Below, piece after piece: positions 8,271 through 48,200 of a DNA stretch of 64,000 bases. Origin of the DNA: Escherichia phage EC100. The notes under the pieces were generated by a model. It made no database searches and was not told the DNA's origin. It was given only the letters and a program-made list of their open reading frames with translations. Made by a program: the position numbers and the translations under genes. Where the stretch lies: the sequence record NC_105587.1. One strand, written 5' to 3'. How positions within the stretch are numbered: position 1 is the first letter of the stretch; each line of letters begins with the position of its first letter.

Positions 8271-8299
8271 TTGACATTTGCCCTTGAATAAGCTATAAT
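8271..8299 (+). promoter_or_regulatory. consensus sigma70 promoter, TTGACA-17-TATAAT, for nrdD
   Basis: Perfect -35 (8271-8276) and -10 (8294-8299) hexamers with 17-nt spacer, in an AT-rich 360-bp divergent region. Confidence 0.7.
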
Positions 8300-8328: not shown

Positions 8329-10203
8329 ATGAATCGCAATGATGAACTAAAGTACAAGGAAATGCAGTCCTTGATTAGAAACTGCAAAGAAATTATTGAG
8401 GGTTCTGCTGATGAAGAGCTTCTCTTTAATAATGCGAATAAACCCTCTGAGCGTTTCCCTACACAAAGGGATATGCTTGCAGGGGAATTGAGTAAATATC
8501 TGATTCTAGAAGAAATGCCAATTCAGATTCGAAATGCTCATATGATTGGTGATATTCACTTTCATGATGCTGATTACGCTGCTTTAGGCATGACTAACTG
8601 TTGCCTAGTAGCCCTGGAAGATATGTTGAAAAATGGTATGAAAGTTGGTAATGCTGAAATTAGCACTCCAAACTCTATCACTACTGCGGCTGCTATTACA
8701 GCTCAGATTATCACACAGGTTAGTTCCCATCAGTATGGAGGTACTTCTGTAGACCGATTAGATGAGGTATTGGCTCCTTATGTTCGTAAGTCTTATGATA
8801 AGAATCATGCGTTTGCAAAACGTTGGACTAAGGATGAAGCCAAAGCATCAGTAATGGCTACGGAGATGACTGAAAAAGAAGTCTATGATGCTTGTCAAGG
8901 TCTAGAGTATGAAATCAATACGATGTTCAACTCTAATGGTCAGAGTCCATTTATTACCTTTGGTTTTGGTCTAGGAACTTCTTGGGAAGCACGTCTAGTA
9001 CAGAAAGCAATACTGAAAGTACGTATGGATGGCTTAGGCATCAATAAACGTACAGCTATCTTTCCGAAACTGGTGTTTGTTCTGCGTGATGGCGTAAATA
9101 TGAAGCCAGGAGATGTTAATTATGACATCAAGAAGTTAGCTATGAAATGTACTGCTGAACGTATGTATCCGGACTATATAAGCTATGATAAGGTTGTGGA
9201 AGTTACGGGCGACTATAAAGTTTCTATGGGCTGCCGTTCATTCCTAGCTGCTACAGAAGATGGTGAAACTGCCGGTCGTAATAACTTAGGTGTTGTTTCT
9301 ATAAACTTGCCTAGAATTGCTATCGAAGCTGAGGGGAATATTGATCTATTCTTTGATTTGCTTGAGTTACGTGTGGATACAGCGTTAAAAGCATTGGAGT
9401 GGAGGGTTGATCGCTTAAAATACATTCAAGCTAAAGCCGCACCCATCCTCTATATGTCAGGAGCCTTTGGATTACGCTTAGGGCCTGATGAGTATGTATT
9501 CGATCATTTCTATAACCGTGCTTCTGTATCTCTGGGGTATATTGGTTGCCATGAAATGTTACAGTTCATGTTTGGCAAAGATGTGGATACAATGTCAGAC
9601 ACCTGTATTAAGTTTGTACAACGTGTTCTACAGTATATGCGGGATAGAGTGGATCAGAAGAAGGAAGAGACTCAGTTAGGCTATAGTCTGTATGCTACAC
9701 CATCAGAGTCCCTATGTGATCGCTTTTGTCGTCTAGACCATGAATATTTCCCGGAGCATGAAGATATTCTGTCCAAAGGTTACTACACTAACTCACACCA
9801 CCTCGATGTGGAGCGTAAGGTTGCTCCAAACGTGAAGTTTGACTATGAATCTAATTTTACTCCAATTGCATCTGGTGGGTGTATTTCCTACGTGGAATTA
9901 CCAGACATGAAACGATTCCCAGATGCACTGGAATGGGTTATTAACTATGCTGCTAGTAAGGTTCATTACTTTGGTATTAATACTCCAGTGGATTCTTGTG
10001 GTAAATGTGGATTCTTAGGTGAAACAGTAGCATCCGAAGATGGATTCAAGTGCCCTATCTGTGGTAATCATGACCCTGAAACTCTTGAAGTAACTCGTCG
10101 AGTTTGTGGGTATCTTGGAAATCCAGGTGCTCGTCCGTTTAACCCAGGCAAACAACATGAGGTTATGGGCAGGGTGAAACATCAGGATATTCTAGCTAAA
10201 TAA
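8329..10203 (+). CDS. nrdD: anaerobic ribonucleotide reductase, class III catalytic subunit
   Basis: 624 aa; C-terminal Zn-ribbon CGKCG...CPICG and glycyl-radical motif RVCGYLG. Confidence 0.85.
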   Translation: MNRNDELKYKEMQSLIRNCKEIIEGSADEELLFNNANKPSERFPTQRDMLAGELSKYLILEEMPIQIRNAHMIGDIHFHDADYAALGMTNCCLVALEDMLKNGMKVGNAEISTPNSITTAAAITAQIITQVSSHQYGGTSVDRLDEVLAPYVRKSYDKNHAFAKRWTKDEAKASVMATEMTEKEVYDACQGLEYEINTMFNSNGQSPFITFGFGLGTSWEARLVQKAILKVRMDGLGINKRTAIFPKLVFVLRDGVNMKPGDVNYDIKKLAMKCTAERMYPDYISYDKVVEVTGDYKVSMGCRSFLAATEDGETAGRNNLGVVSINLPRIAIEAEGNIDLFFDLLELRVDTALKALEWRVDRLKYIQAKAAPILYMSGAFGLRLGPDEYVFDHFYNRASVSLGYIGCHEMLQFMFGKDVDTMSDTCIKFVQRVLQYMRDRVDQKKEETQLGYSLYATPSESLCDRFCRLDHEYFPEHEDILSKGYYTNSHHLDVERKVAPNVKFDYESNFTPIASGGCISYVELPDMKRFPDALEWVINYAASKVHYFGINTPVDSCGKCGFLGETVASEDGFKCPICGNHDPETLEVTRRVCGYLGNPGARPFNPGKQHEVMGRVKHQDILAK

Positions 10204-10210
10204 GCTAATC

Positions 10211-10245
10211 AGCCAGGTTGCTAGTCGACCTGGCTTTTATTTTAT
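10211..10245 (+). terminator. rho-independent terminator after nrdD
   Basis: AGCCAGGT / ACCTGGCT 8-bp stem followed by TTTTATTTTATTT. Confidence 0.7.
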
Positions 10246-10274
10246 TTGCTTTCAGCTAAAAATTTATGTATAAT
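10246..10274 (+). promoter_or_regulatory. cassette promoter, TTGCTT-17-TATAAT
   Basis: Followed by the conserved leader ATAGATTTATAAATTTGAGAGGAG and ATG at 10303. Confidence 0.6.
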
Positions 10275-10302
10275 AGATTTATAAATTTGAGAGGAGAAAG
10301 AT

Positions 10303-10515
10303 ATGAGGATTCATAAGGTAGATAAAGATCGTATCTATTTTGTTATGGACTCAGGAGCATATGGTTCCATTCTCTGTGAGGATATAACTAAATTATGTTT
10401 AGTAAATACTTGGATGGACGAAGAGAAGATTGATCCTAGGGCGGGATTGTGCTTATCTGAGCCCGCCCTTTCTATTGCTAATGCAGAAATTGAAATGTTT
10501 GAGGAACAAGAATGA
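10303..10515 (+). CDS. hypothetical protein
   Basis: 70-aa ORF directly behind the cassette promoter and SD. Confidence 0.45.
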   Translation: MRIHKVDKDRIYFVMDSGAYGSILCEDITKLCLVNTWMDEEKIDPRAGLCLSEPALSIANAEIEMFEEQE

Positions 10516-10715
10516 AAAACGTAAAACATCTTAAATATCGCTTAATTTACAACGGACGTATGGAAACAGAAGATCTGGCCCAACTAGCTATTAATTCTAA
10601 TGAGGTTACAGTGCGTGCACTGGCAATTGAAAAGTTGCGTGCTTCTTATGAAAATCGTGTTATGGAACTAGAGGAGAAACTTTATGGACTTCTTGAATCA
10701 GAATCTAAAAAGTAA
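10512..10715 (+). CDS. hypothetical protein
   Basis: 67-aa ORF, 4-nt overlap with upstream gene. Confidence 0.4.
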   Translation: MKNVKHLKYRLIYNGRMETEDLAQLAINSNEVTVRALAIEKLRASYENRVMELEEKLYGLLESESKK

Positions 10716-10878
10716 TCCAGAAAACATGCTTATTGAGCAGTGGAACTTTGGTTATAATGCTGGTGTAGCTACTTGTATTGCTAGATTGGATATGCTTATT
10801 AAACAAGAAAAGGTACGCCCGGAGGAAGCAATTTTACTCCGAAATATTATCGAAGGATTTAAGCAAGGAATCGTATAG
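10684..10878 (+). CDS. hypothetical protein
   Basis: 64-aa ORF in operon context. Confidence 0.35.
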   Translation: MDFLNQNLKSNPENMLIEQWNFGYNAGVATCIARLDMLIKQEKVRPEEAILLRNIIEGFKQGIV

Positions 10879-11714
10879 TGCGTAGATTAATTATTATTAG
10901 CGGTGCGGGTTTGAGTGTTGAAAGTGGTGTACGAGCTTTTCGTACTGATACTGCTAGTGGTAAAGCATTGTGGGATGATTATGACTTAGAAGAGGTATGT
11001 AATATTCATGCCTTTCGTGGTAATTTTTATCATAAAACTCATATGTTTTACAACAAGCGTCGTGAAGAGCTAAAAACTGTTGAACCCAATCTTGCACACT
11101 TGCGTATTGGTGAATGGTATAAGAAATATCCGGGTCAAGTAGTAAACTTGACTACCAACGTTGATGACCTTATTGAGCGTGCTGGCGTTCCACATAGTGA
11201 CATTCTGCACATTCATGGGTATTTAAAAGAGGTTGTTGTAGCTGATAGCTACAATAGTAGCAATAAACGAATTATTGATATTGGGTATAGCTCTATTGAC
11301 CCAGATGATTATAAATGGGTTAAACCTAATGTAATCTTCTTCGGGGAACATGCTCCAGCATATGCAGAAATGTACAATGTTTTTGATGGTATTACCAGTC
11401 AAGATATGATCATTGTGGTTGGTTGCTCTAATCAAGTAATTAACTTCTACTGGGAATTATTCCCTGTTCTTAATCTGACTTCTGCAAAACTTATGGTAGT
11501 TAACTACTATGATAGTGCTCTAGCGGTGGAACCAGGCTATCAAGGTATGACTCGTAGTGAGATGTACCAATTGGAAGAACGCGGTATCCCTTACTGGAGT
11601 AAAGGTGCGGTAGATGCTTTCAGTGACCCTGGTTTTATTGCTCGTGTAGAAGCCCATTTAGAGGGTAGACCTTATGTGCCGGAGAGAATGGGGAACAAAT
11701 ATGTCCATAGTTAA
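10878..11714 (+). CDS. Sir2 (sirtuin)-like NAD-binding protein
   Basis: 278 aa, GTG start; GAGLSVESGVRAFR, TTNVDDL and HIHG motifs; no CxxC...CxxC zinc ribbon seen. Confidence 0.7.
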   Translation: MRRLIIISGAGLSVESGVRAFRTDTASGKALWDDYDLEEVCNIHAFRGNFYHKTHMFYNKRREELKTVEPNLAHLRIGEWYKKYPGQVVNLTTNVDDLIERAGVPHSDILHIHGYLKEVVVADSYNSSNKRIIDIGYSSIDPDDYKWVKPNVIFFGEHAPAYAEMYNVFDGITSQDMIIVVGCSNQVINFYWELFPVLNLTSAKLMVVNYYDSALAVEPGYQGMTRSEMYQLEERGIPYWSKGAVDAFSDPGFIARVEAHLEGRPYVPERMGNKYVHS

Positions 11715-11883
11715 ATCTGTGTATACACATCCCGATGATATATTTGTATGGGCGGATGGTAGTTGGTGTTATCGATGTGAGCTATGGGAAATGGACTATA
11801 AATCCGATGACTATGGTGTCATATATGTTGATACGGCTGAGTATGATACGTTCTTAGAAAGGAACAAAAATGGAAATAAGTAA
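11701..11883 (+). CDS. hypothetical protein
   Basis: ATG at 11701 overlaps the Sir2 gene end by 14 nt; ORF-track start at 11674 is less likely. Confidence 0.3.
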   Translation: MSIVKSVYTHPDDIFVWADGSWCYRCELWEMDYKSDDYGVIYVDTAEYDTFLERNKNGNK

Positions 11884-12376
11884 TACTCCAATTATTTTTC
11901 TAGACATTGATGGGGTGCTTAATTCGAGCATCTCCCACCATCATGCACCTGATGATGAAAAGATTTTCTTTGGAAGTGACTGGGTTTTTAAACCACTTCT
12001 CAAGGCTTTTCAGGACTTTATTCGTCCTTCTCCAATAATGATTGTTGGGGTATCTTCATGGTTCTCTGTCAAGAATGAGATGGAGAACGTTCAGATTATG
12101 GCCGGATTAGATCTTATCGATCGTTTTCTTGGTACAACGGATTTTACTGGTGGTGGGCTATCTAGAGGTAATTCTGTTCTTCGCTTCGTTGAAAAGCATA
12201 AGCTCAAACATTGGTGTGTGCTGGATGACGCTGGTGCTATGATGTATCAGTATCCAACGGTTATAGTCAACGGTAGAACTGGAATAAATCTTCAAGATTT
12301 AAGAGCTGTTAGCTATATGTTAGAATTTAGTCCAGATCTTGAAATGTGTAAAGCCCTACAACAATTTAAGGTGTAA
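11870..12376 (+). CDS. HAD-superfamily phosphatase-like protein
   Basis: 168 aa; motif I FLDIDGVL near N-terminus and a C-terminal LDD acidic motif. Confidence 0.45.
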   Translation: MEISNTPIIFLDIDGVLNSSISHHHAPDDEKIFFGSDWVFKPLLKAFQDFIRPSPIMIVGVSSWFSVKNEMENVQIMAGLDLIDRFLGTTDFTGGGLSRGNSVLRFVEKHKLKHWCVLDDAGAMMYQYPTVIVNGRTGINLQDLRAVSYMLEFSPDLEMCKALQQFKV

Positions 12377-12378
12377 AT

Positions 12379-12807
12379 ATGTTCAATAATGTATTCTCTA
12401 AAGAAGCTAACCCAATATTGGTTAATTTTTGGCGTACTCTTCCAGACAACCTGTACAATGAGGCTATTAATGCTCTGAAAATATGGTGTGAGAATAATGA
12501 AATCTCCTTTGCTTTTAAAGGTGAGATTGAAGAAGCTCCCTGTATTGGTTTAATTGTGCAGGTAGAGGATGGCTTTGAAGAGATTGTCGGCTGGAAAGAG
12601 TTAGATGAAATGGGCTTGGTTTTTGCGTTAAACTATAAGCTGTTTATGCCTAATAAGCACCGTATTGTTGTTAACTATAAAACCAGTGAATCTCCGGGCT
12701 TTCAAGTTAATGAACATTACGGTTGGTCTTACTCACCGGAAGAAGTAAATGATGGTATACAAAAACTTCGTCGTTTTGGTTATCAAATTCCGGGTTTAAC
12801 CGCCTAA
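12379..12807 (+). CDS. hypothetical protein, paralog 1
   Basis: 142 aa; shares E(L)D..MGL(V/I)(F/V)ALN(Y/F).LF.P core and C-terminal (I/Y)(P/V)GL with the next ORF. Confidence 0.5.
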   Translation: MFNNVFSKEANPILVNFWRTLPDNLYNEAINALKIWCENNEISFAFKGEIEEAPCIGLIVQVEDGFEEIVGWKELDEMGLVFALNYKLFMPNKHRIVVNYKTSESPGFQVNEHYGWSYSPEEVNDGIQKLRRFGYQIPGLTA

Positions 12808-12817
12808 AGGGGGCACA

Positions 12818-13210
12818 ATGGAACAAGTATATTGGCGTCAGATTGATCCTAGTTTGGTGAAGCGTGCGGAGAAGCTGCTACAACGTTGGTTGGGGGTAAG
12901 ACAAGCCTCCTTCACTTTTCCGGAGCAGCAAATAGACGATCCCTGTGTTGGTGTTTTCCTATCAGGCTACGCTAGGGAATGGGAATTGGATTGGAATGAA
13001 TTGTCTGCTATGGGTTTAATTGTTGCACTAAATTTCTCTTTGTTCCATCCACGTGGTTTGGCCATATGTCGTGTGCCTGATGACGGTTGTTCGCCCCATC
13101 TTTTACAGGTGGAAGATGATATTTGGGAGTACACTCCAGATATTCTCAAAGAAGCCAAAGAACAATTAAACCGTGTTGGGATCTATGTTCCGGGGCTAAA
13201 TGATAAATGA
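12818..13210 (+). CDS. hypothetical protein, paralog 2
   Basis: 130 aa; tandem paralog of 12379-12807. Confidence 0.5.
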   Translation: MEQVYWRQIDPSLVKRAEKLLQRWLGVRQASFTFPEQQIDDPCVGVFLSGYAREWELDWNELSAMGLIVALNFSLFHPRGLAICRVPDDGCSPHLLQVEDDIWEYTPDILKEAKEQLNRVGIYVPGLNDK

Positions 13211-13233
13211 TTTTTATTAGTTGACCTCTGATT

Positions 13234-13262
13234 ACCGAGTCATTTTGGCTCGGTTTTCTCTA
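13234..13262 (+). terminator. putative rho-independent terminator
   Basis: ACCGAG / CTCGGT stem followed by TTTCTC. Confidence 0.4.
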
Positions 13263-13301
13263 TGCTCAAAGACACTGATAGCACCATCCGGAAAATTTTA
13301 C

Positions 13302-13330
13302 TTGCAGGATGCCCAAAATCTTGATATAAT
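13302..13330 (+). promoter_or_regulatory. extended -10 promoter (TTGCAG-17-TATAAT with TGn) with no ORF behind it
   Basis: TGATATAAT extended -10 at 13322-13330; the next ORF starts about 500 nt downstream. Confidence 0.5.
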
Positions 13331-13827
13331 ATTTATATTGAATTGAGAGACATTAGTAAAAATTGATTTTGCTAATTTTTCTTGTTTACAATCCGCGATA
13401 CGGAACAGTTAGGCTGCCCCATTAAGGGTTGTTTTAACTATTACTAGTGTTTATATTGCATTAGTTAATCTTCAATTAAGTGATCTGTGTACCCTGAATT
13501 CGGAAAGGTAAATCCAAACCGTGCATATTTAGCTCGTTATATAGGCAGAGTTTTATATGGGGGTGCGAACGAAAAGAGCAGCGAATGGCGGCACGTACAG
13601 TAGTCACCTACCAATAGGATAGTGAGGACAAATAGAATCGGCTTAGCGGCCAATGACCTAGGTTCTATTCTGTATATGAGCGAAGAGAGCACAGCACTGA
13701 GATATGATAACTTATTCATATTGTTTGATGATAATTGATGTTTACGTAAATAGTAGTAATAGTTGTTCTATTCTTTCTGAATAGTCCTAAAGAAAAGATT
13801 TCGATTAACCAACACAGGAGTATTGTT

Positions 13828-15666
13828 GTGTTTTCTATCCTTCAAGGTCACGCCGGATTTTCTCGTGATTTAGCAACAGGTATTTGGCGAGAAATCAAAG
13901 CGGAAGATTATACCTTTGCCAAGCGATTCTCGAAAGAGCATCCAGAAGGTAAACCAGCTTCTATGCCCTTCAAATTTGATGTAATAGAAGAGCACGACCC
14001 ACAAAGCCTTGCCGAAATGTTACCCCTTATGAGACGTTTAACGTCTGACCCTCATATCGTTGCGGTACGAGGTCGATGTCTTGCACCTAAAAATAATGTG
14101 CGACGTAAGAAAGGTAACTTTAATGTATCTAATCCTAGTAATATTATTGCTATGGACGTGGATGGTATCCTAGATACCGGTGGGTACGACAAATTTAATC
14201 TTGTTGGTATGGCCCGCCACATTATTAAGATGTTGAATAGTATTAGTGAGGATATGTTTCCTCTTGATGCAGGCTTTATAGCTCATGCATCATCTTCGGC
14301 TGGGCTAAAACCAGGTATCCGAATGCACTTAATGCTAGAATCTAACGTCAAGGTAACTCAGGGTCAGCTAAAGTTCTTATTTACATCTATCAACGATAGT
14401 AGTAAGCAAAAATTTGGTTTTGATATTGCCGACCTAGCTTATTATTCATCTGTCCAGCTCCACTATTTTGCCGACCCCTTATTTAGCGATGGTATTGTTG
14501 ATCCGTTTAAAGCGGAGAGTAAGCCACGTCTGGTGTATGTTAAAGGTTCGAAAGTAAATTTGCCCAATAATCTAGTTGACTATGAAACAACTAGAGGGGA
14601 GTTTAAGGAAGAGTTTTATTCTTTACTTGATCAAATTAAAGGCAAAAAGATTGCTTCTGATAAAGTAGAAGAAACCATCAGCGAGTTAGAAGAGGCTGAT
14701 GATGGAGTGTATTTGCGTATTATCCCCAAACTATACCATAGAGCATTAGAGGATGGTGTTGATTTTGCATGGCTAGAACGTGAGATTAAACCAGCTTTAT
14801 CTGAATATATTGCAACTAAAGATAACAGTCGTAATATTCAAGATTACTTTAATAACGGTCGTAAGCAGGCTCTCAAAGCGTTTGTTAATAATTCTAAACG
14901 TGAGATTCCATTAAATCTGAAAGGTGTTCCACTTAAGAAATTAGAAGTGGATTCTCCACCAGAAGTTCCATACCTGAAGATTAATATTGTGCCCCCAAAA
15001 GGCCATATAACATTTGTTAAGGCAAGTCTTGGTACGGGTAAAACTACGGCAGTAACTAAATGGCTGGACGCAGGTGTTCTTCCGGGCAACTTTTTAGCAG
15101 TTACAAATACTAGAGCACTGGTATCTTCAAATGCCAAGAAATTTAGTGCAGGACAATACGATAAGTCTGTAGATATGCTCAACTTTAAGCGTGGAGCTAT
15201 TGATCGTATGTCCACAACTATTCACTCTTTGCATAAGTTCAAAAGTTTTATTGGGCAAATAGACACCATTTTTATTGATGAATGTGACGCTGTAATGAAT
15301 GACCTATTATTCGCCCCTGTTGTTAAACAACGTCGTGAGTGTATTCAAGTTCTACGTGACATCCTCATGACAGCTAAGACTGTAATCTTATCCGATGGTG
15401 ATATTAGTGCTGAGACGATTGAAGCATATGGTTCTCTAATTGATTTTGATAAACCGGTTGCATTTTATAATCATCACCGTAAAATGCTGTCAAAAGCTCA
15501 TGCTTATGAGTTCCCTGATGAGTCCAGTATTTGGGTTGCACTTCAGACTTCTCTAGAGATGGGTGAGAAATCTATTCTAGTATCTGATTGTGGCCCGGAT
15601 GAGCTAAATGAGAAAGGTATGGCACTGCGTCGTAATACGGGTGCGTTAGTTAAGGAAATCCATTGA
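13828..15666 (+). CDS. helicase-like protein, N-terminal portion, ends at in-frame TGA
   Basis: 612 aa, GTG start with AGGAG SD; Walker A GTGKTT and Walker B IFIDECD. Confidence 0.6.
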   Translation: MFSILQGHAGFSRDLATGIWREIKAEDYTFAKRFSKEHPEGKPASMPFKFDVIEEHDPQSLAEMLPLMRRLTSDPHIVAVRGRCLAPKNNVRRKKGNFNVSNPSNIIAMDVDGILDTGGYDKFNLVGMARHIIKMLNSISEDMFPLDAGFIAHASSSAGLKPGIRMHLMLESNVKVTQGQLKFLFTSINDSSKQKFGFDIADLAYYSSVQLHYFADPLFSDGIVDPFKAESKPRLVYVKGSKVNLPNNLVDYETTRGEFKEEFYSLLDQIKGKKIASDKVEETISELEEADDGVYLRIIPKLYHRALEDGVDFAWLEREIKPALSEYIATKDNSRNIQDYFNNGRKQALKAFVNNSKREIPLNLKGVPLKKLEVDSPPEVPYLKINIVPPKGHITFVKASLGTGKTTAVTKWLDAGVLPGNFLAVTNTRALVSSNAKKFSAGQYDKSVDMLNFKRGAIDRMSTTIHSLHKFKSFIGQIDTIFIDECDAVMNDLLFAPVVKQRRECIQVLRDILMTAKTVILSDGDISAETIEAYGSLIDFDKPVAFYNHHRKMLSKAHAYEFPDESSIWVALQTSLEMGEKSILVSDCGPDELNEKGMALRRNTGALVKEIH

Positions 15667-15681
15667 AACTCTACCTCAGAT

Positions 15682-16617
15682 GTGGATATTCGACGTATTC
15701 TGGATTACACAACTAATGAACTAATTGATCAACAAATTGATTGCTTATTATGTAGTCCATCCGTAACGAGTGGTGTTGACTTTAACTATTTTGATAACGT
15801 ATTTGTGATTACTAGAACTAGTAATCAAGCGCCAAACATGCGTTTCCAAGCAATCAGGCGCGACCGTGGTGCTCAGAATATCTATTATTTTATTGATAAA
15901 TCCACTAGTGGATTCTCCGCAGGTTCTGAACAATATAATATTGATGAGGGTTGGCTGGAGTTAGCACAGCAATTATATGCACGTCGCAGGGAGCTGGAAT
16001 CTAGGAACTATACTAGTACTTTACGTTATTACTTGCTTGATCAGGGTGCAACTATTGATATTTTCAGTGAAAGCTGGGGAACTATTGAAGGTGCTGGTAA
16101 AGAGTACACAGAAGAGCGAATCAAAGCTATTCTGCACTCAACTCCTGATTATTGTGCTCCACGTCATGCGGATGCGTATGAAGCTAAGCTACTTCTTGTT
16201 CGCTATTATCATCTCGAGTCTATTAAAGATGTAACAGTTGAGCATGTTGAACAATATATAAAAGATAAACCGAATGATCGAGCTGCATTCTTCCATAAGA
16301 TGCACGAGATGTTCTGGGAAGATATTAAGAAGTGTTCAAATGTGACCATTAAACCATTCATAGAGGCTCTGAAAGGTAAGAAGAAAGATTTCTTCCTTAA
16401 AACCGGTCAGAGTGCTAACCCAAAATATGCTAGAATGTATCTTGGCATGATGGGTATTGGTAAGGATATGAACACGGAGAATATCGTAGACTGGTACAGA
16501 ACCTACTGTAAAATCGAGTGTATGCCAATTCCTTATAAATTCATGACTGACGAGGAAAAACATATGCACGATGAAGCAATGTCAGAGCTAGGTGCTAGAA
16601 ATGACAGTGAAGAATAA
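15682..16617 (+). CDS. helicase-like protein, C-terminal portion (same frame as 13828-15666)
   Basis: 311 aa in the same reading frame 15 nt after the TGA; helicase-like SPSVTSGVDF motif; no SD in front of its GTG. Confidence 0.5.
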   Translation: MDIRRILDYTTNELIDQQIDCLLCSPSVTSGVDFNYFDNVFVITRTSNQAPNMRFQAIRRDRGAQNIYYFIDKSTSGFSAGSEQYNIDEGWLELAQQLYARRRELESRNYTSTLRYYLLDQGATIDIFSESWGTIEGAGKEYTEERIKAILHSTPDYCAPRHADAYEAKLLLVRYYHLESIKDVTVEHVEQYIKDKPNDRAAFFHKMHEMFWEDIKKCSNVTIKPFIEALKGKKKDFFLKTGQSANPKYARMYLGMMGIGKDMNTENIVDWYRTYCKIECMPIPYKFMTDEEKHMHDEAMSELGARNDSEE

Positions 16618-19158: not shown

Positions 19159-20130
19159 ATGACCAATGTAAAAGAATTTATTAAACGCTGTCAAGAAGCA
19201 TATTATCAAGGCATGTCTTTAATCTCTGATGAAGAATATGATCGCCTGGTAAAACGCTTCCCGTTAGAGGAAGAGATCGGGCCTAAGGGTGATATTCCAC
19301 ACCTATATCGTATGTATTCTTTACAGAAAGTTTATTATAACCGTGGGGATAAACCACCATTTAATCCTTTAGGTCAGGTAGAAACTGATAAGTTAGATGG
19401 TTGTGCAATTTCTCTGCTATATATTAACGGTGAATTTGTTCAAGCATTAACCCGTGGTAATGGTATTCTGGGAAATGATGTAACAAGCAACGTAAGATTG
19501 CTGAACATTCCTAAAAAGATTTCCCAAAAAGTACCTACTCAAATCACTGGTGAAGTTCTAATTACAAAAGAAGTAGAAAATAAACGTAACTTTGCCTCTG
19601 GTGCTATTAACCTCAAAGATAGTGATGCTTTCGTACAACGCATTGGAGAAGGCGGTTTAATCTTTGTTGCTTACGGTATCCAATGTTCTGCTGAATCTGT
19701 AGGTATTACAGAAGCATATTTAAAAGATATGCTTTGGCTAGAGAAGGAGAACTTCTTAACAGTTGTTAATGTGCGTTCCTTTTTTAAATGGATTCCTACG
19801 GACGGTAAAGTTGTTCGTATTAATGACAATAACAAATTCTTCCGTGAAGGCTGGACTAATAAATTCCCTCGTGGAGCATTCGCCATTAAAGAGGATGAAG
19901 AAGGCGAAATTACAACTCTTACTAAAGTTGAATGGCAGGTAGGGGCTTCTGGTAAAGTAACTCCAGTTGGTTATTTCGAACCGGTAATTATTGATGATGC
20001 TACAATTGTTAAAGCGACTCTTAATAACGTTGATTATATTAACTCTCTTGATCTAGAGATCGGTTGCCAGATTCGAGTGATTCGTGCTGGTGGTGTAATC
20101 CCGTGCATAGTAGAGCGAGTATACGATTAA
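19159..20130 (+). CDS. lig: NAD-dependent DNA ligase, subunit A (adenylation and OB domains)
   Basis: 323 aa; KxDG adenylation motif (KLDGCA) and LigA-type OB-fold segment (WQVGASGKVTPV...RAGGVIP). Confidence 0.8.
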   Translation: MTNVKEFIKRCQEAYYQGMSLISDEEYDRLVKRFPLEEEIGPKGDIPHLYRMYSLQKVYYNRGDKPPFNPLGQVETDKLDGCAISLLYINGEFVQALTRGNGILGNDVTSNVRLLNIPKKISQKVPTQITGEVLITKEVENKRNFASGAINLKDSDAFVQRIGEGGLIFVAYGIQCSAESVGITEAYLKDMLWLEKENFLTVVNVRSFFKWIPTDGKVVRINDNNKFFREGWTNKFPRGAFAIKEDEEGEITTLTKVEWQVGASGKVTPVGYFEPVIIDDATIVKATLNNVDYINSLDLEIGCQIRVIRAGGVIPCIVERVYD

Positions 20131-20332: not shown

Positions 20333-21112
20333 ATGAAAATCGAAATTCCAACACAATGTCCCTCTTGTGGTTCTAAGCTAGATCTTGTCAACGGACAATT
20401 ATTCTGTCGTAATAAGTCCAACTGTCCAGCGCAATCAAGTAAGTTAATTGAGAACTTCTGTTCAAAAATGAAGTTAAAGGGCTTTGGCCCAAAAACTATT
20501 GAGAAGCTGGAGCTGACGAAGATTTCAGAACTATTTTACCTAACCGAAGAAGATTTGGTTAGAGCCGTGGGTAGCAAGGTTGCCGCTAAGTTAATTAGCG
20601 AATTAAATACTAAAGTTCGCGGAGACATTGACTTTGGTTCAGTTCTCGGTTCTTTAGGAATCCCTCTAATTGGAGAGGTTGCAGCAAAGAAATTGTCCCA
20701 AAATTGCACCAGTTTTCAAGATGTGAAGGCTGACGGCAAGGCTGGAGAAAACTATAAAGCCTGGCTAAATTCCCCACAAGGCAAGGATGTTATCGAATTA
20801 CCGTGGAAATTCACAACTGGTATTAAAGGTGCTAAAGCTGAGGTCATCATTACTGATGGTCTAGTAGCCCAGCCAAATGGAATCGCGGTGTGTATTACCG
20901 GGTCTTTGCAAGATTTTGCAAATCGAACGGATGCAACAAACTATTTAGAAGGTCTAGGATATACGGTTAAGAAATCCGTTACCAAAGACGTCAAATACCT
21001 AATCTGTGAGGATGAATCTAAGCGTTCTTCCTCATCTTATAAGAAAGCCGAAACGAATGGGATAGAAATCCTGTCGATTAAAGAACTATTGGAGAAAAAT
21101 AATAATGTCTAA
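20333..21112 (+). CDS. lig: NAD-dependent DNA ligase, subunit B (Zn finger, HhH, BRCT-like)
   Basis: C4 zinc finger CPSCGSKLD...CRNKSNCPAQ at the N-terminus, then HhH-like GFGPKT; ATG at 20333 (ORF track starts at TTG 20330). Confidence 0.75.
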   Translation: MKIEIPTQCPSCGSKLDLVNGQLFCRNKSNCPAQSSKLIENFCSKMKLKGFGPKTIEKLELTKISELFYLTEEDLVRAVGSKVAAKLISELNTKVRGDIDFGSVLGSLGIPLIGEVAAKKLSQNCTSFQDVKADGKAGENYKAWLNSPQGKDVIELPWKFTTGIKGAKAEVIITDGLVAQPNGIAVCITGSLQDFANRTDATNYLEGLGYTVKKSVTKDVKYLICEDESKRSSSSYKKAETNGIEILSIKELLEKNNNV

Positions 21113-45232: not shown

Positions 45233-48200
45233 TTAAGAATTTCCTAATGTTTTCAGACTAGCACCGTTCTCATTCAGAGCTAATTCTACTGCGTCTCTTA
45301 GAGCACTACTATTACTAGAAGCAAACTCTCTAAAACTTGCAGCATCCATAGCACTAATATTCAAGATGATAGGTCTTCCTGAAGTTGAGTTAGATGAGGT
45401 TTTTAACTCATCATTAGGTGTAGCTTTCATAGGAACCATAGGGGTAACTACTTCTGTACCATGCTCACCCATTTGATAGCTAACCCCAGGGTACATATTA
45501 CCACCCTCAGCACGAGGAACGAAAGAGTTAGCACCGCCTATGCCTTTATCGCCACGAATATAAGATAATTCACCAGCATTAGCAGACATGGACACATCTA
45601 TATTCTTCTGACGTTCTCCTAAGGTTAAATAACTAGTTGTATCCGCCCCAGAATCTGCAATAGAAGACATGCCAGATGCAGAAGATGCTTGTGCTAACGC
45701 CAATGCACCCGCTAAACCTGCCGCAACCATTAAAGGAATAGAGAACGGGTATGGTACAGCTGTTGCCGCTTGCATTACAGCTACTGCAGTTTGGATGATA
45801 ATCTGCTTCTTAGCTGCGTCTTGTTGAATCTTCAGCTTTTCAGCTTCCAACTTCTTCAACTTAGCTTTAGATGCTTCTGATTTACCATCACGTTTCTGTT
45901 CTGCTGCAATAGCCTGATCAATTGCACTAACTTGTTGGCTAGTACTATATTGAATCATCGAGGCTACAGTCTGCATACCAGAAGCAATCATAGACGTAGT
46001 ATCTAGGGATCCCTGGGAGAACTGAATCATAGAGTTAGTTAAATTACCCATGCTTTGAGCTACAGCAGTTGCTTCGGAATTTAACTCAGATAGTTTAGAA
46101 ATTGCTTGGTCATACGAAGACATCCTATTCTGCATATCAGCAAAATCTTTATCTGCTCCAGATAGGCCAGTTGTAGGAGTATAAGTAGCTCCAACAGAAG
46201 AACCTACCTGTTGCTGCATCTGAGCATTACGTTGTGCTGTTAAAGCTGACATCTGAGCCCTTGTCTTAGCTATTTCAGCATTCCAACGCATTTGCTCATT
46301 AGCGTTACCTTTGGTAAGTTCTTTCATCTGAGTATAAAAATCTAACTGCATTTCCATTTTTTGCATTTCCCCTGCCAGAGGGAACATGGAAGTTAGAGTA
46401 TTTTCAAAGGCTTCTTGCCTTTTACTGGTCATTTCAGCTTGCTGGTTCTGACGGAATTTCCATATTTCACGTTCAATTTGGGCTTGAGAACGTCTAGACT
46501 GTTCAGCCTCTTTCTGTTTGTCCGCTTGTTTTGTATACCATTCGTACTTCTCTTTTTCAATGGTCAATTCAAGATTTAACTGTGCTAGACGATACTGAGT
46601 ATCTGTCATAGTACGGTTATTTAAGAGAGCTATCTCACGATCTACACCAAGAATTTTATCTGTGTAATCCTTGACCTTCTTCTGAGCTTCCATACCCTGA
46701 TTGGTAAGTTTAAGTTTCTCCAGCTGAATTTTTTCAATTTCTTTCTCAACAGCTTTATTTCCCTGGTTTGTTTGAAGAACACGGCGTAAAGCAGCTTCTT
46801 GCTCTTCTAACTGTTGGAGTTCTAAACGCCTACCGGCTTCCTGTGCTTTTTCTTTATCCTTAGTTTGGTTATATACATCAGCTATCTTCTGTTGAACTGC
46901 TAACTGATTTTTAGTTTCATTACCGGTTAGTTTAACATACTCAGATAAGGCCTGAGACGCAGTTTTCATTTCAGACAGAGTGTTATAGCCTAGGTTAAGA
47001 TTTTTAACGTACTCATCTGCACTTTTACCAGTACCTAGAGATAGAGATTCTATATTTTTTATAGCATCTGCTAAAGTAGCACTAGTTTTAGCAGCAGTAT
47101 CTGTATTCTGAGCAACGTTCTGTATGTCATTAGCTAAGTCACTAGCCGTTTTCTTAGTCTGATTGTACGCTTTCTGCTGCTCAGTTAGTCCTTTTAATAC
47201 AGTAGAGTTAAAATCGTATACAGCATCAGGATCAGTAGTATCTCTCTGTAGATTAATCTGTTTCTGAAACTCTGGATTAGCTTTTGCAGCAGCAGCACCC
47301 GCAGCTTGATAGGCTGACTTCCAAGCATTAAGGTTTTCAGTAGAATCTTCTACTTCCTTACCTAGTCTGGTTACTTGTAGACCCATAGCCGCAGTTTCTT
47401 CTACGAACTTTTTATTAGCTTCGGAAGCACCAGCAGCAGCAAGACCAACAGGAATACCTTCACCAACTTGACGTATGGCTAGTTTTGTATAGAAATCTGC
47501 TTGTTCCATTCGTTTGTCGAACTCAGATTTTAGCTTATTACGCTTATCAAGAGATTCCTTATACATATCTAGAGCTTTATTATAGCCTTCTTCAGAAGCA
47601 GCCAAACTTAAAGCAACAGCACCAACGTTGGTAGGATCTATCTGTCTATTAGTTTTTTCTTGCGCTCTAGCTGCCTCAGCAGATATCGAAGCCTGAGAAG
47701 TGTAGAATACAGTATTGATAGCATCAATTACTGGCCCTAAATACTTAGCAGCAGCCTGCTGAATCTTTCTCAGGGCGGCATCTGCATTAGCAGCAAATTG
47801 CTCCCATGGAGTTGCACGTAGTACTTCATCTAGGTAGCCAAACCTCTTAGTAGATTCAGCAATTACCGCGTTAGCGTATGCTTGTTGTTTCTGGAAAGTG
47901 GTAAGACTATTAACATTATATGTTATACCTGTGTTTGCAGCATTTAACTGTTTAACATAATCGGCGTATGCGTCATTAAGACGGATGGTGACACCAAGTT
48001 CATCCAGAAGTTCGATTTCTTGTTTAGATACGCCCTTAATTACACGGTTAAGTGCATCAGTCATATCAACACCAAGAACAGCAGCAGCACGACGAGCTAC
48101 TAAACCAAATTTATTAAGTTGTTCGGCATCAAATCCATAAGCAGATGCTGAAGATGCCTGTCTCATTGCTTCCTCAAAAGAAATAGCATATCCAGCAGCT

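Follow-up and report, generated by a model that had tools for sequence, protein, structure and literature searches.

The window analysed here, 64,000 nucleotides of the genome of Escherichia phage EC100 (NC_105587.1), is of a Tequintavirus and near-identical to Escherichia phage EC122, with 3 base differences over its first 45.6 kb. Across bases 10200–13400 the identity is 100% to Escherichia phages EC122, EC105, EC104 and EC142 and 93–96% to many further Tequintavirus genomes. This segment encodes a Sir2-like protein (hereafter Sir2), which is also found in phage T5 (AY543070) with 95% identity, annotated there as "putative Sir2-like protein". The gene is located in the early region, with the genes for the aerobic ribonucleotide reductase, PhoH and NrdD upstream and genes for an origin-binding helicase, an NAD-dependent ligase and DNA polymerase downstream. 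Besides this ligase, the NAD- or ADP-ribose-related functions of the phage genome include a NADAR protein at 332–781, and NARP3 is present in T5-like relatives (PMC13464706). About 23 tRNA genes exist in the phage genome; none was found within the window, and an Rfam scan of positions 10000–14000 yielded no credible non-coding RNA.

Sir2 belongs to a unit of eight plus-strand genes, packed or overlapping, that is bracketed by two terminator-like hairpins. The upstream boundary is a plus-strand hairpin after nrdD (10211..10235; 10-bp stem with 6 GC pairs, then a T-run). It is followed by the putative plus-strand promoter TTGCTT-17-TATAAT (10247..10275), which was read directly from the sequence and, with 3 of 6 positions matching in the −35 hexamer, lies under the scanner threshold, and by a strong GAGGAG ribosome-binding site serving the first small ORF. 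Three small ORFs precede Sir2: one of 70 aa at 10303..10515 (phrog_20147, E 1.6e-39), annotated as a CDS in relatives; a T5.101-like one of 67 aa at 10512..10715 (phrog_5236, E 1.3e-46), with a homologue in most T5-like loci; and one of 64 aa at 10684..10878 (phrog_5827, E 1.7e-31), which is annotated in VSe12 and the stop of which overlaps the Sir2 start. Sir2 itself, at 10878..11714 (278 aa), is assigned by Pfam, alignment and model as a zinc-less class III-type sirtuin. A 60-aa ORF at 11701..11883 (phrog_5116, E 2.3e-30) overlaps Sir2 and the following gene by 14 nt each. The latter, starting 156 nt past the Sir2 stop, encodes a capless HAD phosphatase of 168 aa (HAD_SAK_2; 11870..12376; PF18143, E 2.9e-20). 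Two DUF7415 genes, whose products have a phage-only orphan fold, complete the unit, paralogue A at 12379..12807 (142 aa; PF24187) and paralogue B at 12818..13210 (130 aa; PF24187, E 2.2e-31), and the closing plus-strand hairpin at 13234..13254 (9-bp stem, 5 GC pairs, T-run) lies 24 nt past the last stop. A preliminary description of this DNA had placed Sir2, a HAD-like phosphatase and two paralogous genes in one plus-strand operon. The Pfam assignments, the overlapping starts and stops, the flanking hairpins and the promoter-like site bear this out, as they do the three small upstream ORFs. Sir2 does not head the cluster, however, since it comes only fourth in the unit, after those ORFs, and the fourth small ORF, between Sir2 and the HAD gene, had been missed.

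The Sir2 ORF begins with a GTG that overlaps the TAG codon ending the previous ORF, and AAGGA is located 9 nt before this start. This start is supported by the homologues, as 26 of 26 aligned sequences begin with M(P)RR. The sole Pfam match of the protein is SIR2 (PF02146), which covers profile positions 1–178 of 180 and is far beyond chance (E 9.1e-25, 88.1 bits against a cut-off of 24). All three sirtuin motifs named in the preliminary description were located, GAGLSVESGVRAFR at residues 9–22 (nt 10902–10943), TTNVDDL at residues 92–98 (nt 11151–11171) and HIHG at residues 111–114 (nt 11208–11219). The NAD motifs comprise GAGLS (residues 9–13), F21/R22, TTNVDD (92–97), GCS (182–184) and VVN (207–209), and His113 aligns with the catalytic H147 of CobB. 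That catalytic or NAD-binding residues might turn out to be missing had been considered beforehand; this is not the case, as the 26 homologues, with identities as low as 55%, all share His113, GAGxS, F21/R22, N94/D96, G182/S184 and N209. Across phage families, at 48–96% identity, 59 residues are invariant, all catalytic ones included. The protein is therefore predicted to be an apparently active, NAD-using sirtuin.

The AlphaFold model (pLDDT 87, pTM 0.86) predicts a Rossmann-type sirtuin fold. In a Foldseek search with this model CobB scored best (E 3e-16, TM 0.85); there were 286 matches in the PDB at E ≤0.001, and the best 50 of these 286 were all sirtuins. Profile-HMM classification and structure prediction, the two computational checks that had been proposed, both identify the protein as a sirtuin, and no homology to Tpt1, a member of the ART superfamily, was found. 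Identity as a defence-type SIR2 NADase was rejected: the PADLOC models for ThsA, DSR1/2, SIR2-HerA and SIR2-APAZ gave no match at E ≤0.01, and SIR2_2 was not matched either. The macrodomain gene that marks SirTM loci was not found adjacent to Sir2, and none of the eight operon proteins matched a Macro family.

Of the proteins with solved structures, E. coli CobB (E 1.7e-17), archaeal Sir2-Af1 and SIRT5 match best by sequence; the scores of class I sirtuins are lower, and the fold search ranks alike. The closest relatives of the phage protein are class III, and its origin probably lies in this CobB/SIRT5-type branch. It scores far under the curated cut-off of every NCBIfam CobB equivalog model (89.7 vs. 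320 bits for NF040867; 98.9 vs. 243 bits for NF001753). The CobB active-site residues A76, Y92, R95, I131 and V187 were randomised by Spinck et al. (PMC7317389). In a pairwise alignment they correspond to C41, Y58, R61, V95 and V152 of the phage protein, conserved or conservatively replaced; the 26-sequence alignment shows all five, like His113, to be invariant. The phage protein thus retains the Y-x-x-R anion pocket of class III sirtuins. In addition to this pocket, phage Sir2 shares with E. coli CobB (PDB 1S5P, 6RXJ) and SIRT5 the fold, the catalytic His, GAGxS, FR, NxD and FGE. In contrast to CobB, the phage protein has TTNVD for TQNID, the Gln being replaced by a Thr (T93) that is invariant in the phage clade according to the 26-sequence alignment. 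It also lacks the VYP proline (V187-I188-N189), and this absence is invariant in the same alignment. Moreover, it has a 4-residue insert in the cofactor loop and, in the Tequintavirus subclade, a 16-residue insert after VVN. The clade is acidic, with pI values of 4.6–6.0.

A further difference from CobB is the lack of zinc ligands. The aligned segment of CobB contains four Cys (…VRC…KCHCC…) and that of the phage protein none; the two Cys that the latter possesses in total, C41 and C183, both lie outside, and there is no Cys between H113 and F154 of the FGE motif. The H..FGE segment could be recognised in 98 homologues, none of which has four Cys there and only 4 of which have two. The segment itself, at 28–46 aa (median 33), has about the length of the CobB ribbon, and the AlphaFold model places beta strands at 114–122, 131–134 and 147–152. 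In the model, the ribbon is kept as a beta-hairpin of CobB length without metal ligands, a vestige and not a deletion. The earlier observation that a zinc-binding CxxC...CxxC module is missing from a genuine sirtuin is hence correct for the ligands, but a hairpin of similar length persists. Given the retained segment length and modelled strands, "zinc-less ribbon" describes it more accurately than "no ribbon". Provision of zinc ligands in trans by the 60-aa ORF at 11701–11883, which contains WCYRC, was rejected; its CxxC is not conserved, the second Cys being E, S or F in relatives.

The clade appears to be restricted to phages, and among them to lytic ones. It is carried by 992 phage records, whereas a megablast search of 5,426 complete E. 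coli genomes gave 0 matches. A prophage or host origin was rejected on this basis.

The HAD protein has the motif residues D12xD14 (I), S62/S63 (II), R99 (III) and D119D120 (IV), which are invariant between it and the homologue from Erwinia phage KEY (40% identity). At 168 aa it is too short to hold a cap domain. Capless members of the HAD superfamily are associated with macromolecular substrates. The two DUF7415 paralogues share 31% identity (E 2e-19), B being nearer to the family consensus (WNELSxxGL..ALN...HP.GLA) than A. This family is tiny, with 62 representative clusters among 1.8 billion, and its predicted fold is confident (pLDDT 90). A sequence search of the PDB with the HAD and DUF7415 proteins returned nothing significant.

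The neighbourhood of Sir2 was surveyed by local tblastn in 59 IMG/VR loci, covering 8 kb around the gene. HAD_SAK_2 plus two DUF7415 genes occurred in 27 of the 59 loci and DUF7415 without the HAD in 3, all T5-like, so that DUF7415 genes follow Sir2 in 30 of 30 T5-like loci of this survey. Full-length but distant DUF7415 proteins (26–30% identity) are encoded directly after Sir2 in three further uncultured, HAD-less T5-like loci (L069, L070/L071 and L072); near a relative that consists of the C-terminal domain alone, Sir2 is absent. Phage DT57C has lost Sir2 but retains its two DUF7415 genes, and KEY and the 145-kb phages have Sir2 without DUF7415. The adjacency may reflect functional coupling or plain Demerecviridae synteny.

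The genes around Sir2 are arranged differently in other phages. Erwinia phage KEY has HAD_SAK_2 – ORF – SIR2. Raoultella phage Ro1 (145 kb) has a run of genes for an Rnl1 RNA ligase, cREC, an AAA_33 kinase, SIR2 and an ATP-ligase, and the same run occurs in an uncultured 133-kb phage; the Sir2 proteins of these two are 59–62% identical to that of the window, and a Metallophos phosphoesterase is encoded nearby. Ligase, kinase and phosphoesterase genes were found together within ~3.7 kb in 11 of the 59 IMG/VR loci, in several gene orders, and cREC accompanied them in 8 of these 11, once at a distance of 5.4 kb. Sir2 is thus recurrently linked to RNA end-processing genes across unrelated phages and in differing gene orders. 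The window itself conforms to the phage sirtuin neighbourhood tied to RNA repair, with its sirtuin beside HAD_SAK_2 and the orthologues beside Rnl1, cREC, kinase and Metallophos genes. The preliminary description had left the functional choice open and had missed this repeated linkage, which is the most telling evidence on function. None of the tested RNA-repair genes was found within 8 kb of Sir2 in ~15 of the 59 loci, and no RNA ligase, kinase, cREC or ATP-ligase partner was found elsewhere in the T5-like genome. In phages of the ECO340P2 type, which lack RNA-repair genes near Sir2, a sponge gene with an Acb2/Tad1 hairpin is located 4 kb upstream of Sir2.

A natural deletion exists in phage DT57C, in which two segments corresponding to window positions 10722–11370 and 11514–12267 are missing. 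What remains is a 90-aa chimera of Sir2 residues ~166–212 and HAD residues ~134–168. Sir2 and the HAD were hence lost together and are dispensable in this viable isolate.

Several of these features have been described before. The Sir2 gene has reportedly been annotated since the T5 genome paper, and it is known from T5 and hundreds of relatives. The zinc-less Sir2/CobB of the KVP40-like Vibrio phages phiSt2 and phiGrn1 was described in 2016, when the T5 homologue was named as well and deacetylation of Acs was proposed; the data given there are homology models and transcript levels (PMC5107563). These proteins belong to the same phage sirtuin group, with 41–42% identity over residues 3–209, but their context differs in that they are encoded beside NAD salvage genes (PMC5107563). 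The link between sirtuin and HAD goes back to Iyer, Burroughs, Anantharaman and Aravind, who in 2022 made T5-like Escherichia phage SP15 the type of their Sir2-HAD neighbourhood, type 3 (PMC9503650, section 3.7.3). The window is an instance of it, with a sirtuin and a Swiss-army-knife-type HAD in a T5-like phage, and the arrangements seen in the other phages examined here likewise agree with those of that paper. The same authors predict that the phage sirtuin removes RNA 2′-phosphates in the manner of KptA/Tpt1 (PMC9503650). The present analysis adds detail and no new kind of feature: the retention of the class III pocket residues, the invariant Gln-to-Thr replacement together with the missing proline, the adjacency of DUF7415 that persists in distant relatives, the co-deletion in DT57C and the lack of sealing enzymes in T5-like genomes. 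A literature search found no biochemical or genetic work on the zinc-less phage Sir2 clade.

We tentatively suggest that Sir2 functions in the NAD-dependent healing of RNA phosphate ends, a possible reading that we hold with limited confidence. Made from the early-region operon of a lytic T5-like phage, Sir2 would catalyse the attack of a substrate oxygen on C1″ of NAD+, with nicotinamide leaving, and the catalytic His would activate the 2″-OH of the ADP-ribose to resolve the adduct. The target would be broken RNA instead of acyl-lysine, and a 2′- or terminal phosphate would be ADP-ribosylated and thereby removed. This reaction would parallel that of the unrelated Tpt1/KptA enzymes, which are NAD+-dependent, likewise proceed by C1″ attack and 2″-OH resolution, and are tied to RNA ligase pathways. 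Sirtuin and Tpt1 chemistries are formally parallel, even though Tpt1/KptA has the ART superfamily fold and shares no sequence similarity with the Rossmann-type sirtuin. To our knowledge, Tpt1-type activity has been shown for no sirtuin. The adjacent capless HAD might remove the remaining terminal phosphate or the ADP-ribose-phosphate that the reaction leaves behind. As a pair, the two proteins would heal RNA ends and so help the phage to withstand host nucleases cutting tRNA or mRNA. That the substrate is RNA, that the reaction resembles that of Tpt1, that the HAD shares the work and that all this serves counter-defence is what we infer; catalytic competence is predicted from the intact catalytic and NAD-binding residues.

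The suggestion of RNA end healing draws support from the invariance of these residues and the confident model, from the recurrence of Sir2 among RNA end-processing genes in different orders, from the four catalytic motifs kept by the capless HAD, from the joint loss of both genes in DT57C and from the independent prediction by Iyer et al. (PMC9503650). The ~23 tRNA genes indicate that tRNA integrity matters to the phage. A known counter to anticodon nucleases is the tRNA-repairing Pnkp/Rnl1 pair of phage T4. The phosphatase of Pnkp is likewise HAD-type, and homologues of T4 Rnl1 flank the orthologous Sir2 in the 145-kb phages. The T5-like operon differs in having neither kinase nor ligase, while T4 has no sirtuin and makes no use of NAD+. 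As the T5-like genome encodes no recognisable RNA ligase, cREC or polynucleotide kinase, it would not support self-contained healing and sealing, and a host ligase would be required. A more far-reaching version appears doubtful to us, namely that the zinc-less phage sirtuin is a convergent replacement for Tpt1/KptA, with the Demerecviridae DUF7415 proteins as recognition or regulatory partners, in a counter-defence module against tRNA-cleaving immunity.

Judged by homology alone, the protein should be a deacylase like CobB, acting on anionic acyl-lysines. On that account, which we consider somewhat unlikely, Sir2 would be an ordinary lysine deacylase of the CobB/SIRT5 type that prefers negatively charged acyl groups (succinyl, malonyl) or acetyl and resets host or phage protein acylation during infection, the zinc being replaced structurally. 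CobB and SIRT5 are the best relatives by sequence and fold, FGE and the catalytic His are kept, and the Y58/R61 anion pair, the small C41 at the site of CobB A76, V95 and V152 are invariant, so that the retained pocket fits a deacylase at least as well as an enzyme acting on RNA (PMC7317389). The acidity of the clade also counts against the latter, being unusual for an RNA-binding enzyme. Such an activity was moreover argued for the zinc-less Vibrio phage Sir2/CobB by Skliros et al. in 2016, who named T5 (PMC5107563). A deacylase leaves unexplained, however, why RNA ligase, kinase, cREC, phosphoesterase and HAD genes recur as neighbours, and it is this linkage, which would be of no use to a generic deacylase, that makes us favour RNA ends as the substrate. 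The linkage is itself incomplete, since about a quarter of the loci lack it and three plus three T5-like loci keep Sir2 and DUF7415 without the HAD, and both facts count against an RNA substrate. The Gln-to-Thr replacement in TQNID and the missing VYP proline change conserved sirtuin positions and suggest a departure from canonical lysine deacylases at sites that contact the substrate or the NAD ribose (PMC5107563). The scores far short of the CobB cut-offs and the fact that the host already owns CobB likewise speak against a plain deacylase.

Some sirtuins, e.g. SirTM, are ADP-ribosyltransferases (PMC9503650), and Sir2 could instead be a counter-defence enzyme that modifies a host defence protein or nucleic acid or makes or destroys an ADP-ribose signal. 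We regard this as unlikely, and equally so that the HAD and/or DUF7415 proteins process its products or act as its partners. The genome is rich in NAD and ADP-ribose functions (NADAR and the NAD-dependent ligase; NARP3 in relatives, PMC13464706), which is consistent with such a role, as are the Acb2/Tad1-hairpin sponge gene at 4 kb from Sir2 in ECO340P2-type phages and the dispensability in DT57C, which is usual for accessory counter-defence genes. DUF7415 directly after Sir2 even in distant HAD-less T5-like relatives points the same way, but may be mere family synteny, to judge from DT57C, KEY and the 145-kb phages. According to Pfam, the operon contains neither a macrodomain nor another known ADP-ribose eraser, and the PADLOC and SIR2_2 results give no likeness to defence-type SIR2 NADases. 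It is highly improbable that Sir2 goes back to a host cobB captured by the phage and is now decaying and without function. The zinc ligands are gone and DT57C is viable despite its deletion, yet the 59 invariant residues, all catalytic ones among them, the presence in 992 phage records, the confident fold and the intact ORF, translationally coupled to its neighbours, all argue for a maintained protein.

If the prediction of an RNA substrate is true, sirtuin chemistry would reach from acyl-lysine to RNA phosphates, and T5-like, rV5-like and jumbo phages would share an NAD-consuming RNA-healing step against tRNA-cutting defences. This would fit the NAD economy of these phages, with NAD-dependent ligase, NADAR and NARP3 salvage. 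If Sir2 did replace Tpt1 by convergence, action on RNA would have been shown for a sirtuin for the first time. A plain deacylase would instead exemplify how a phage re-tunes the acylation of host proteins.

In RefSeq, two genes at this locus are labelled as Sir2. A second Sir2 gene was rejected, as the "Sir2" label of the HAD gene stems from phrog_18062, which matches HAD residues 77–168 as well as Sir2 residues 169–215 and thereby mirrors the deletion chimera of DT57C. This chimera explains why PHROG-based pipelines label the HAD gene "Sir2".

Besides Sir2, the zinc-less sirtuin encoded at 10878-11714 (+), the same phage possesses a further ADP-ribose-related function in the form of a NADAR-domain gene on the minus strand (332-781; PF08719, E 9e-22), which is mis-annotated as 'GTP cyclohydrolase II' in the near-identical Escherichia phage EC122. 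Moreover, we found an NAD-dependent DNA ligase encoded on the plus strand by two ORFs that are separated by a gap of 200 nt, the first comprising the adenylation and OB domains (19159-20130) and the second the HhH and BRCT domains (20333-21112). Because this ligase is NAD-dependent, DNA sealing in the phage also relies on NAD+.

In several uncultured T5-like phages, Sir2 is followed by one or two divergent DUF7415 genes without the HAD phosphatase gene (L069, 4211-5489; L070, 1747-3508; L072, 4201-5805). DUF7415 thus stands directly after Sir2 even where HAD is lacking and is the more constant Sir2 neighbour of the two in the T5-like lineage. In phage DT57C, a natural double deletion corresponding to 10722-11370 and 11514-12267 of the window joined a Sir2 fragment to the HAD C-terminus (L007, 3480-3752). 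The resulting chimera of 90 aa was likely the seed of phrog_18062, a family that leads annotation pipelines to assign the name 'Sir2 (NAD-dependent deacetylase)' to intact HAD genes.

In the Escherichia phage ECO340P2, a gene of the Acb2/Tad1-hairpin family of anti-CBASS/anti-Thoeris sponges (L067, 2940-3215) is located upstream of the Sir2 orthologue at a distance of 4 kb. In phages of this type, a Metallophos gene of different size is located approximately 6.5 kb upstream of Sir2, and no RNA ligase or kinase homologue was detected within 7-8 kb of it.

We noticed 570 nt without a credible ORF (13255-13827) between the terminator-like hairpin closing the Sir2 operon and the downstream helicase gene. 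This stretch contains promoter-like sites, e.g. at 13363-13392, had no match in Rfam and may play a part in regulation or be related to an origin. At 8271-8299, the plus strand carries a promoter that matches the sigma-70 consensus perfectly (TTGACA-17-TATAAT), and nrdD starts 30 nt downstream of it.

The origin-binding helicase gene (Herpes_ori_bp-like; 13828-16617, +), apparently an essential replication gene, is cut by an in-frame TGA at 15664-15666 into parts of 612 and 311 aa. A Ser codon (TCA, TCT or TCG) occupies this site in all 36 related loci, including EC122. Either the TGA is a nonsense mutation private to this phage, or it stems from a sequencing error.

Ahead of approximately 45.7 kb, the window differs from EC122 by only three SNPs, while from position 45692 on the identity falls abruptly: the tail tape-measure and tail genes show thousands of differences. 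This abrupt fall after so few SNPs indicates a mosaic or recombinant tail module.
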